DNA from: Candidatus Woesearchaeota archaeon
GTDB taxonomy: Archaea > Nanobdellota > Nanobdellia > Pacearchaeales > GW2011-AR1
Direction: 5' to 3'
Assembly (NCBI GenBank): GCA_964530955.1
Contig: CAZHCL010000009.1
Location: forward strand, 1-36,018
DNA length: 36,018 nucleotides
Within the stretch, counting starts at the first letter, position 1; every line of letters starts with the position of its first letter. This document shows positions 359 to 24,755 of the stretch, in pieces. A program made the translations under genes and the position numbers. The notes under the pieces were generated by a model. That model saw nothing but the letters and a program-made list of their open reading frames with translations. It was not told where the DNA came from and ran no database searches.

Positions 359-528
359 TGCTCCTGCCGGGATTTGAACCCGGGTTCTGGCCGTTCTCCA
401 CTGCCCTGATAAAATCAGGGCGTATTGTGAAAAGCGCTTGTCTGAGAGCAGACAGAGATTTCAATCTCGACGATTCAAATCTCAGCAATCCGAGAGGGCC
501 ATGTCCTTGACCTCTAGACTACAGGAGC
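359..528 (-). tRNA. tRNA-Glu(CTC) with a 97-nt intron at 37/38 (intron 394..490)
   Basis: Exons match the intronless tRNA-Glu(TTC) at 21923-21995 except at position 34. Complete BHB: central helix CUCU/GGAG, bulges CG^G and AA^C, outer helix AUUGC/GCAGU. Confidence 0.95.
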
Positions 529-6741: not shown

Positions 6742-6805
6742 TTTCTCTCAAAACAACTATCTATGGATTATTTATAAATATTCGGTAAGATTGGTAGAAG
6801 ATAAA

Positions 6806-6877
6806 AGCGGAAGGAGGGAGTCGAACCCTCGTCTACAGCGCCACAAGCTGACATTCTACCGTTAAACTACATCCGCC
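6806..6877 (-). tRNA. tRNA-His(GTG) copy 1, encoded G-1, U73
   Basis: GCGGATG/CTTCCGC acceptor (U6-U67 mismatch), loop TT-GTG-GC (U27-U43 mismatch), canonical TTCGACT T-loop. Confidence 0.85.
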
Positions 6878-6946
6878 ATGCATTTAGTGATGTAAATTGA
6901 TTTAAAAATCTAATGAAAACAATGGAATTGACATTAAATTATGCTC

Positions 6947-15620: not shown

Positions 15621-16496
15621 TTAATCTTTTCTTTCATCTTTTTTTCGGTCCCTCCTTTCATTTTCCTTTTCTATATCTTCAATGCTTACTCCTTCTTTTG
15701 CCATAATAACGAAGAGAAAATATATCAAGTCGGCAGCCTCCCAGATTAATTGTTCCCTATTTTTGGCAGTTATTACCTCTGCAGCTTCTTCTACAAGCTT
15801 TCTTTTTAAGAGTAGTTCGTCTTTAACAATAGAAGAAGTATAGGAACTGGGACTGTTTGAGTCTATTCTTTCTTTTATTTTCATAAAAAGGCTGTTAAGG
15901 TCAAAGAAATTCTTCTTATTCTTTCCAATTAGTACTATATCTGACTCGAAAAGTTCGTCATAGATTGTCAGGCCAGCAACATCTGCTGATTTACCAGTCA
16001 CCACTATATCTATCACCATATCAGCCAGCCCTTTTGAGAAAAATTCTTCAGTCGCTCCATAGGCATAGGTCTTATCAATTAGGTATCCCTTATTTTCCAA
16101 AAGATTTGTGCAATATTTTTTTGCGAGCTCTTTGTATTTTGTGTTTATGCAAATTTTTATCTTCCTCGGCATTTCCTCCATCTTCTTATTTTTTGGTCCG
16201 AGTAGACATAGAACGGGCTTGCTAAATAACGAGTCTGAGTTCCATGGTTCTCTCTTAATAATTGATAACTTACTATTCCGTACTTTGAGGGTGAATTCCT
16301 TAAATAGGTCTTCTCCCGTTATTCCTATCGCAGTTTTACCTTCTAAAATCAGTTTTTCAGTAAACAAAGGTACATCTTCTCCTCTTACTTCTTCTATTAT
16401 AGAGGATGGACCTTTGATGCTTATCGCTAATTCCCTGCATTTTTTTAATCCAGTGTTTTTAGGAATGATTATGTAATCAACATTCTTAGTTTCCAT
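15621..16496 (-). CDS. hisG: Fusion of short-form ATP phosphoribosyltransferase (HisG) with phosphoribosyl-ATP pyrophosphatase (HisE), 291 aa
   Basis: HisG motifs RGEDVP, GITGED, NTKY, GATE, GLADMVIDIVVTG; HisE motifs SYTSS, KLVEEAAEV, EAADLIY. GGAGGT SD supports ATG 16496. Confidence 0.9.
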   Translation of the reverse strand: METKNVDYIIIPKNTGLKKCRELAISIKGPSSIIEEVRGEDVPLFTEKLILEGKTAIGITGEDLFKEFTLKVRNSKLSIIKREPWNSDSLFSKPVLCLLGPKNKKMEEMPRKIKICINTKYKELAKKYCTNLLENKGYLIDKTYAYGATEEFFSKGLADMVIDIVVTGKSADVAGLTIYDELFESDIVLIGKNKKNFFDLNSLFMKIKERIDSNSPSSYTSSIVKDELLLKRKLVEEAAEVITAKNREQLIWEAADLIYFLFVIMAKEGVSIEDIEKENERRDRKKDERKD

Positions 16497-16518
16497 AAAT
16501 GACCTCCAAGAATATGGA

Positions 16519-16590
16519 AGCGGCAGACGAGAATCGGACTCGCTTCTTCGGCTCCACAAGCCGACATTCTGCCATTAAACTACTGCCGCC
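16519..16590 (-). tRNA. tRNA-His(GTG) copy 2, atypical (T-loop TCCGATT; 3' end ...GC-T-T-CCA)
   Basis: Perfect GCGGCAG/CTGCCGC acceptor, TCGGC-TTGTGGA-GCCGA anticodon arm, encoded G-1; ends about 10 nt before the hisG SD. Confidence 0.82.
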
Positions 16591-16836
16591 TATGATAGAT
16601 AATATTTTAGAAATAATGAAAACAATCAGCACAAAGAGTGCCTTTCGCTCCAAAAATTAAACTATTAGAAATAAAGCTTATGCTAGGAATACTACTTTGC
16701 ACAATGCCGAAAACTCCTTGAGGTTTTCATAGAAACAGGAAATTTCTTTACTATTTATATTTATCTATTCTATCTAGTTTCTCACTATAAAATACAGAAG
16801 AAGAATGTTTATAAATCATAAAAATCCACCAGATAG

Positions 16837-24628: not shown

Positions 24629-24755
24629 TGATCCCGCGGAGATTTGAACTCCGGACCCCTGCCTTTCCTAGCTTTCAAGAAAGCCTTGAAAATAAACTTC
24701 TAGCGAAGCTTACTCCTATAAGAGCAGTGCTCTGAACCAGCTGAGCTACGGGATC
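24629..24755 (-). tRNA. tRNA-Ile(TAT) with a 52-nt intron at 37/38 (intron 24665..24716)
   Basis: GATCCCG/CGGGATC acceptor, A73, loop CT-TAT-A^A, BHB central helix CUUA/UAGG. Confidence 0.9.

Follow-up and report, generated by a model that had tools for sequence, protein, structure and literature searches.

A probable operon-linked tRNA-His at the head of a hisGE–hisS unit in a DPANN archaeon

In Escherichia coli, the thrU-tyrU-glyT-thrT-tufB operon is transcribed as a tRNA–mRNA co-transcript. The thrS operator of the same species and T-box leaders are partial mimics that overlap the ribosome-binding site, or riboswitches that bind tRNA. In plant mitochondria, tRNA-like structures known as t-elements abut mRNA (PMC1920247). 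Canonical prokaryotic tRNA-His has a genome-encoded G-1 paired with C73, which extends the acceptor helix to 8 bp (PMC3245924), and in E. coli HisRS a Gln of the motif-2 loop reads C73 (PMC10100707). The HisRS of Nanoarchaeum equitans, a member of DPANN, requires G-1 but is nearly indifferent to N73; this organism keeps C73 and the motif-2 Gln, encodes CCA and lacks RNase P, and its tRNA promoters are rigidly placed, so that transcripts begin at the mature 5' end or close to it (PMC10100707). A partial literature search returned no account of tRNAs with C55 or of archaeal tRNA-His–hisS operons.

The window, a stretch of 36,018 nt, is contig C9 of a 761-kb genome (G000; 26 contigs, 34.5% G+C) that is 83% complete, so that all gene absences reported here are provisional. 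The closest relatives of its HisRS are from Pacearchaeota/Woesearchaeota MAGs, and the host is therefore a DPANN archaeon. There are two tRNA-His genes in the window, of which copy 1 is free-standing and copy 2 lies immediately upstream of a hisG-hisE fusion gene (hisGE) and hisS (Table 1). It is likely that copy 2 is a genuine operon-linked tRNA-His, the first element of a tRNA-His–hisGE–hisS unit, co-transcribed with the genes behind it and then freed through cleavage by RNase P and RNase Z, and that the tRNA itself is no dedicated sensor.

Table 1. Features of the window and of related loci. Plain numbers are window positions; C and L prefixes denote contigs of G000 and loci of relatives.
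Feature	Position	Strand	Evidence or remark
tRNA-His(GUG) copy 2, type 2, operon-linked	16515..16590	-	ARAGORN; Rfam; cloverleaf is minimum-energy fold; 7-genome alignment
Spacer of 18 nt, CCA to start codon, with GGAGGT Shine-Dalgarno (SD) at 16502-16507	16497..16514	-	sequence
HisG-HisE fusion, 291 aa, first ORF past the tRNA, in frame	15621..16496	-	Pfam HisG 68.5 bits, PRA-PH 60.2 bits
HisRS, 408 aa	14370..15596	-	Pfam tRNA-synt_His 158 bits plus anticodon-binding domain
13-mer ATTGTTTTCATTA, candidate non-canonical promoter of copy 2	16614..16626	-	exact repeats; related motif in relatives
13-mer upstream of copy 1	6911..6923	-	exact repeat
13-mer in an ORF near the contig start	152..164	-	exact repeat
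tRNA-His copy 1, type 1, free-standing	6805..6877	-	ARAGORN; Rfam; same form in 15/17 genus genomes
tRNA with intron, ARAGORN label Ser(tga)	24629..24755	-	
Second tRNA with intron	359..528	-	
C55 tRNAs Asp, Gly-GCC, Val-CAC of G000	C8:10495-10566, C14:10005-10075, C14:14039-14109		
RNase P RNA	C19:5412-5730		114 bits, archaeal
TruB/Cbf5-type synthase	C1:112174-112515		
Tiny ORF MNADx[IF]HC behind type 2 tRNA-His	L101:375-401; L120; L121:1603-1640		
HisG with +1 leader, G012	L097:1156-1260		
HisG with +1 leader, Iainarchaeum	L031:1340-1440		

Two tRNA-His genes and the type 2 paralogues

Copy 2 is called tRNA-His(GTG) by ARAGORN and scores 61.7 bits against Rfam RF00005 (E 3.4e-11, over 16519-16589; gathering threshold 29), with zero non-standard pairs flagged, and the cloverleaf is its minimum-energy fold. 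The stems are of 7, 4, 5 and 5 bp, the 7-bp acceptor stem is fully paired and the anticodon is GUG (16557-16555). On the minus strand the 5' side reads A-2 (16591), G-1 (16590), G1 (16589), and the 3' side C72 (16520), U73 (16519), U (16518) and CCA (16517-16515). The encoded G-1, the GUG anticodon, the eighth acceptor pair, the standard cloverleaf and the tertiary bases are those of canonical prokaryotic tRNA-His. Copy 2 differs from that type at two positions, and both differences recur in the lineage. U73 leaves a G.U wobble where the Watson-Crick pair G-1:C73 would be expected, and C55 (16537, in the T-loop UCCGAUU) replaces U55 in an elbow set (G18, G19, U54, U55, C56, A58) that is otherwise complete.

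Copy 1 reaches 62.6 bits with the same model. It has a normal T-loop (UUCGACU), G-1, U73 and an oligo-T/U-rich trailer without CCA, and the Rfam scan flags two mismatches, U6.U67 and U27.U43. Every point that an earlier first-pass annotation of the window had listed for the two copies is borne out by the sequence, including the CCA of copy 2, which is one base out of register behind C72-U-U, the G-1:U73 and A-2:U74 pairs available there, and the U73 opposite G-1 in both genes; the covariance-model scores given above are a check that it had proposed.

The U6.U67 mismatch, often with a second at 5:68, is standard in the lineage: it is present in 15/15 genus genes of the copy 1 form that were printed and in 22 of the 29 order-level tRNA-His genes, and the pairs adjoining 6:67 covary in the tRNA-His of the order. 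The mismatch looks like a selected trait of tRNA-His in this order; it is copy 2, with its full pairing, that is unusual.

These counts, and the tRNA-His counts across genus and order that follow, come from a tRNA-His covariance model run on 17 genus and 60 order genomes; a BLAST survey with a tRNA query missed most orthologues. The form represented by copy 1 (type 1) is present in 15 of the 17 genus genomes. Copy 2 represents a second form (type 2), found in seven of them behind a conserved TCATAG|G 5' flank and not found by the covariance model in the other 10. When the seven type 2 genes are aligned, 95.9% of stem cells are paired, with two-sided changes in 11 of the 21 pairs. None of 500 shuffles matches this pairing, and slid controls are 37–58% paired. 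G-1, U8, A14, G18, G19, the anticodon loop, G53, U54, C56, A58 and C61 are invariant. Cloverleaf, anticodon and tertiary bases are thus maintained through compensatory evolution, the signature of a constrained tRNA competent in decoding.

The type 2 genes have their nearest neighbours among themselves and among the type 1 genes of the genus, and are therefore in-genus paralogues. Mean identity is 74.6% among type 2 genes as against 81.7% among type 1 genes, so type 2 is diverging faster. This, together with the 10 genomes in which type 2 was not found, suggests that its product may be redundant and drifting.

Discriminator base, position 55 and CCA in the lineage

U73 is the norm in the genus, where it occurs in 21 of 22 tRNA-His genes (15/15 of type 1 and 6/7 of type 2). 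Among the 29 order-level genes it is found in eight, which belong to a single family. All 29, like all genus genes, encode G-1. The Gln that would read C73 is missing from the HisRS motif-2 loop across the whole order, the loop being RDEP-x4-R[FL]RQF in C73 and U73 lineages alike. Covariation between N73 and this loop was considered and rejected on these grounds; the absence of the Gln from both kinds of lineage fits weak selection on N73. At this motif-2 site (HisRS residues ~106-127), the genus has RDEPIGPGRFRQF-like loops that resemble the PGPG loop of Caulobacter-type HisRS, and the best bacterial matches of the window HisRS are of this type.

Pyrimidine 55 is almost universally U or pseudouridine (PMC7912444). 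The UCCGAUU loop is present in four of 41 parsed tRNAs of the genome, namely copy 2, Asp(GUC), Gly(GCC) and Val(CAC), and each of the last three is the sole gene found for its anticodon. C55 also occurs in the sole tRNA-His found in each of G054, G058 and G037, two of which have it directly upstream of hisS, and relatives also carry it in tRNAs for Ser, Val and Asp (His/Ser/Val/Asp loci L159, L160, L162, L164, L173). Among the seven type 2 genes it is confined to this genome. The genome-wide count of the string GTCCGAWTC is no higher than that of a reversed control, and the evidence used here consists of hits inside tRNAs (5 of 30 sampled loci) and of coordinate matches to covariance-model hits. 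A TruB/Cbf5-type synthase is encoded (Table 1); Pus10 was not found in the genome.

CCA is in register in none of the 41 genome tRNAs and is missing from all six orthologues of copy 2. A-2 can pair with N74 in three of the seven type 2 genes, and CCA follows only in the window. Three further trailers, those of Leu-CAA, Thr-CGT and Glu-TTC, contain a chance CCA within 8 nt of the discriminator. The proposal that copy 2 has an extended, 9-bp acceptor, with its CCA brought into register by the A-2:U74 pair, was rejected on this distribution.

C55, U73 and the displaced CCA had been put forward as marks of a special role. U73 has proved to be normal for the lineage and C55 largely so, an outcome that the first-pass annotation itself had named as telling against its regulatory reading, and the CCA is not conserved. 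Most likely C55 and U73 are tolerated variants, whether lineage habits or chance; in copy 2, C55 could be mildly deleterious. A false lead is thereby removed, as neither base nor a nearby CCA marks a regulatory RNA in this lineage.

Operon position, promoters and processing

Copy 2 physically leads the hisGE–hisS unit, as had been noted previously. From U73 to the HisGE start codon (ATG at 16496) there are 22 nt, which include the GGAGGT SD and contain no oligo-T; the gap between hisGE and hisS is 24 nt. The same tRNA–SD–ATG layout is repeated in G011, G005, G003, G009 and G006, and in the annotated loci (G016, G000, G005, G011, G003) every type 2 gene heads a hisS operon. The genes in between vary. 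In G016, hisS follows directly after a 51-nt gap; in G000, G005 and G011, hisGE is interposed; and in G003 (L101:379-3079) the intervening genes encode a GNAT acetyltransferase and an AstE/AspA-like deacylase. G009 and G006 share the same first-ORF start only, to which is added a HisRS match on the short contig of G009.

The linkage extends beyond the genus. In 18 of the 29 order loci, the 1.5 kb of downstream sequence fetched with tRNA-His contains hisS on the same strand, usually with its start 11–75 nt past the tRNA and in a few loci farther away. A canonical BRE/TATA, in register with G-1 and some 27 nt upstream of it, is present at most of these hisS-linked tRNA genes. Gaps of 11–21 nt are too short for an archaeal promoter, and hisS would therefore be read from the tRNA promoter. 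This order-wide linkage marks the tRNA-His–hisS unit as ancestral in the order, with the hisGE or GNAT genes as exchangeable cargo inserted into it.

Proximity as such is not distinctive here. A same-strand ORF lies within 120 nt of 22 of the 42 genome tRNAs, and within 30 nt of five or six. Among the close-spaced ORFs checked by Pfam (six and the window's own), no other pair of tRNA and cognate synthetase was found. Tight tRNA–ORF spacing is common in the genome; the cognate pairing is specific.

At copy 2 the tRNA abuts a same-strand ORF and leaves no room for a promoter or terminator, an arrangement that is conserved in the orthologues and is expected of co-transcribed genes. In this it resembles the known tRNA–mRNA co-transcripts and the t-elements, and cleavage by RNase P and RNase Z would likewise make an mRNA end. 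It is unlike the t-elements and the E. coli tufB operon in that the downstream genes include the cognate synthetase, that the association is order-wide in archaea, and that processing is here a prediction.

Most tRNA genes of G000 have TTTAAAA or TTTATAA centred at -27.5 or -26.5 from the mature 5' end, and such rigid placing implies that the tRNA transcripts would be nearly leaderless. Copy 1 conforms, with a canonical TATA centred at about -27 from G-1 and in register. Copy 2 has no canonical box at -27; only TTTTCATTAT is there, as part of the 13-mer ATTGTTTTCATTA. This 13-mer has three exact copies in the genome, all of them in the window and all on the minus strand. One is 24 nt upstream of the G-1 of copy 2, at the location of a TATA box; another is 34 nt upstream of copy 1; the third has no adjoining tRNA. 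Short divergent ORFs that start in the 13-mer are not conserved. A related motif, CTGATT..TTCATTG, is present upstream of the type 2 genes of relatives. Copy 2 probably has a weaker and different promoter.

RNase P RNA, RNase Z (325 bits) and an archaeal CCA-adding enzyme (108 bits) are all encoded; Thg1 was not found in the genome. The comparison with N. equitans is accordingly mixed. Most tRNAs of G000, copy 1 included, have the rigidly placed promoter of that species, whereas G000 differs from it in possessing RNase P RNA and in lacking encoded CCA and the motif-2 Gln, and copy 2 differs further in lacking the rigid promoter.

From gene identity, conserved structure, synteny, lineage frequencies and the enzymes present, we infer co-transcription, processing sites and charging as follows. 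Transcription of copy 2 would start slightly upstream of G-1, from the non-canonical promoter. It would be expected to continue past the tRNA into hisGE and hisS, since there is neither an oligo-T nor room for a second promoter. RNase P would cut 5' of G-1, aided by the G-1.U73 wobble, and RNase Z after U73, which would free the tRNA body and leave an mRNA with a short, SD-bearing leader. CCA would be supplied by the CCA-adding enzyme, and the genomic U-CCA would be a discarded trailer. The supply of tRNA-His would in this way be coupled to expression of its synthetase.

An order-wide operon of a tRNA and its cognate synthetase, together with a relaxed N73, tolerated C55 and conserved mismatches in the acceptor stem, suggests that the rules of tRNA-His identity and the expression of tRNA have shifted in genome-reduced DPANN archaea. 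The natural tRNA-His variants of this lineage could be used in biochemical tests of HisRS recognition.

Alternative roles of copy 2 and histidine leaders in relatives

An alternative that is unlikely, but that several features would suit, holds copy 2 to be mainly a tRNA-shaped processing or promoter module. In such a t-element, cleavage by RNase P and RNase Z would set and stabilize the 5' end of the mRNA, and decoding would be left to copy 1, whose canonical promoter and oligo-T trailer fit it for that role. The lack of a canonical promoter at copy 2 and the 10 genus genomes in which type 2 was not found are in keeping with this division of labour, as are the greater divergence of type 2 genes, the scattered mismatches in those of G006, G011 and G016, and the restriction of C55, within type 2, to this genome. 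A pure processing signal would have no need of the anticodon loop, G37, G-1 and the tertiary bases, all of which save position 55 are invariant in the seven genes. Moreover, the hisS-linked gene is the sole tRNA-His found in most of the order, and there it must therefore decode.

The HisG-HisE fusion contains zero histidine in five orthologues of 288–299 aa, compared with a genome-wide His content of 1.36%. HisA/F, HisI and HisD were not found in the 83%-complete genome, which makes HisGE an orphan. In G012 and in the Iainarchaeum locus L031, only a +1 shift, at AUU-CAU-U and CUU-CAU-C, respectively, gives access to the HisG frame; in L031 a tRNA-His of 57.3 bits (Rfam) lies just upstream. In G003, G009 and G006, an SD-led tiny ORF, MNADx[IF]HC, overlaps the main (GNAT) ORF in the +1 frame, and in G006 the main frame has no start codon of its own. 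G012, L031 and G006 thus have a His-codon +1 leader, and G003 and G009 may have one. In G012, moreover, a HisI-like domain is inserted into the fusion (383 aa). No such leader was found in the window, where HisGE is read in frame from its ATG and has zero His codons, and in G011 and G005, too, HisGE starts in frame at an ordinary ATG and has no His codon. The His-codon +1 frameshift leaders of DPANN his/hisS operons thus belong to the same operon family, which is probably histidine-responsive, and their mechanism is absent from the window, G011 and G005.

A broader version of the regulatory idea, which we consider improbable, is that the tRNA-His at the head of his/hisS operons in DPANN archaea acts within a leader for histidine homeostasis. 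Folding, processing or charging of the tRNA, or binding of HisRS to the nascent tRNA, would then set the amount of transcript or translation that hisGE and hisS receive. The window would be a variant that has lost the His-codon frameshift gate and retained the tRNA-dependent step.

Very unlikely, too, is the specific proposal of the first-pass annotation, that copy 2 senses the state of aminoacylation. As a sensor of histidine or charging, or as a binding site for HisRS, it would control hisGE and hisS in the manner of the thrS operator or of a reversed T-box. The likeness is conceptual, in that a tRNA-shaped leader is tied to the cognate synthetase gene, and the position of the tRNA directly upstream of hisS is conserved across the order; the histidine-free HisGE and the His-codon leaders that stand right behind the tRNA in relatives also speak for some response to histidine. 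In those relatives, though, it is the leader ORF rather than the tRNA that would do the sensing, and the window lacks such an ORF. Unlike the thrS operator and the T-box leaders, copy 2 is a complete tRNA without T-box features, and 10 nt separate its end from the SD, which it does not overlap; in an Rfam scan of the window at gathering thresholds only tRNAs were returned, and no regulatory family, T-box included. A hairpin in which the trailer would pair with codons 3-6, enclosing SD and AUG and sequestering the SD, was considered and rejected. It is weak (z -1.75 in the window and -1.67 in G005, by mononucleotide shuffles), absent from G011 and different in G003. Tight spacing is moreover ordinary in so compact a genome, and no evidence of sensing by the tRNA itself was found.

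It is highly improbable that horizontal transfer brought in copy 2 along with a hisGE(-hisS) module, as had also been suggested: HisGE is patchy (in 5/17 genus and 0/24 other-genus genomes, 41 being searched with a protein query), G054, of another family, pairs its C55 tRNA-His with a downstream HisG-like stretch (tblastn), and copy 2 has the same acceptor stem as the tRNA-His of G049, also of another family, but the nearest relatives of type 2 genes are in-genus tRNA-His genes, the tRNA–hisS linkage is ancestral in the order with hisGE or GNAT as the inserted part, and the window HisRS, the only one found in the whole genome by tblastn, is 63–75% identical to its genus orthologues.

Two further tRNA genes in the window are of a different kind. 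The one labelled Ser(tga) by ARAGORN shows a CUUAUA anticodon loop in the Rfam alignment, and its identity is doubtful; this gene and the second one (Table 1) contain introns, of 53 nt and ~97 nt, respectively.
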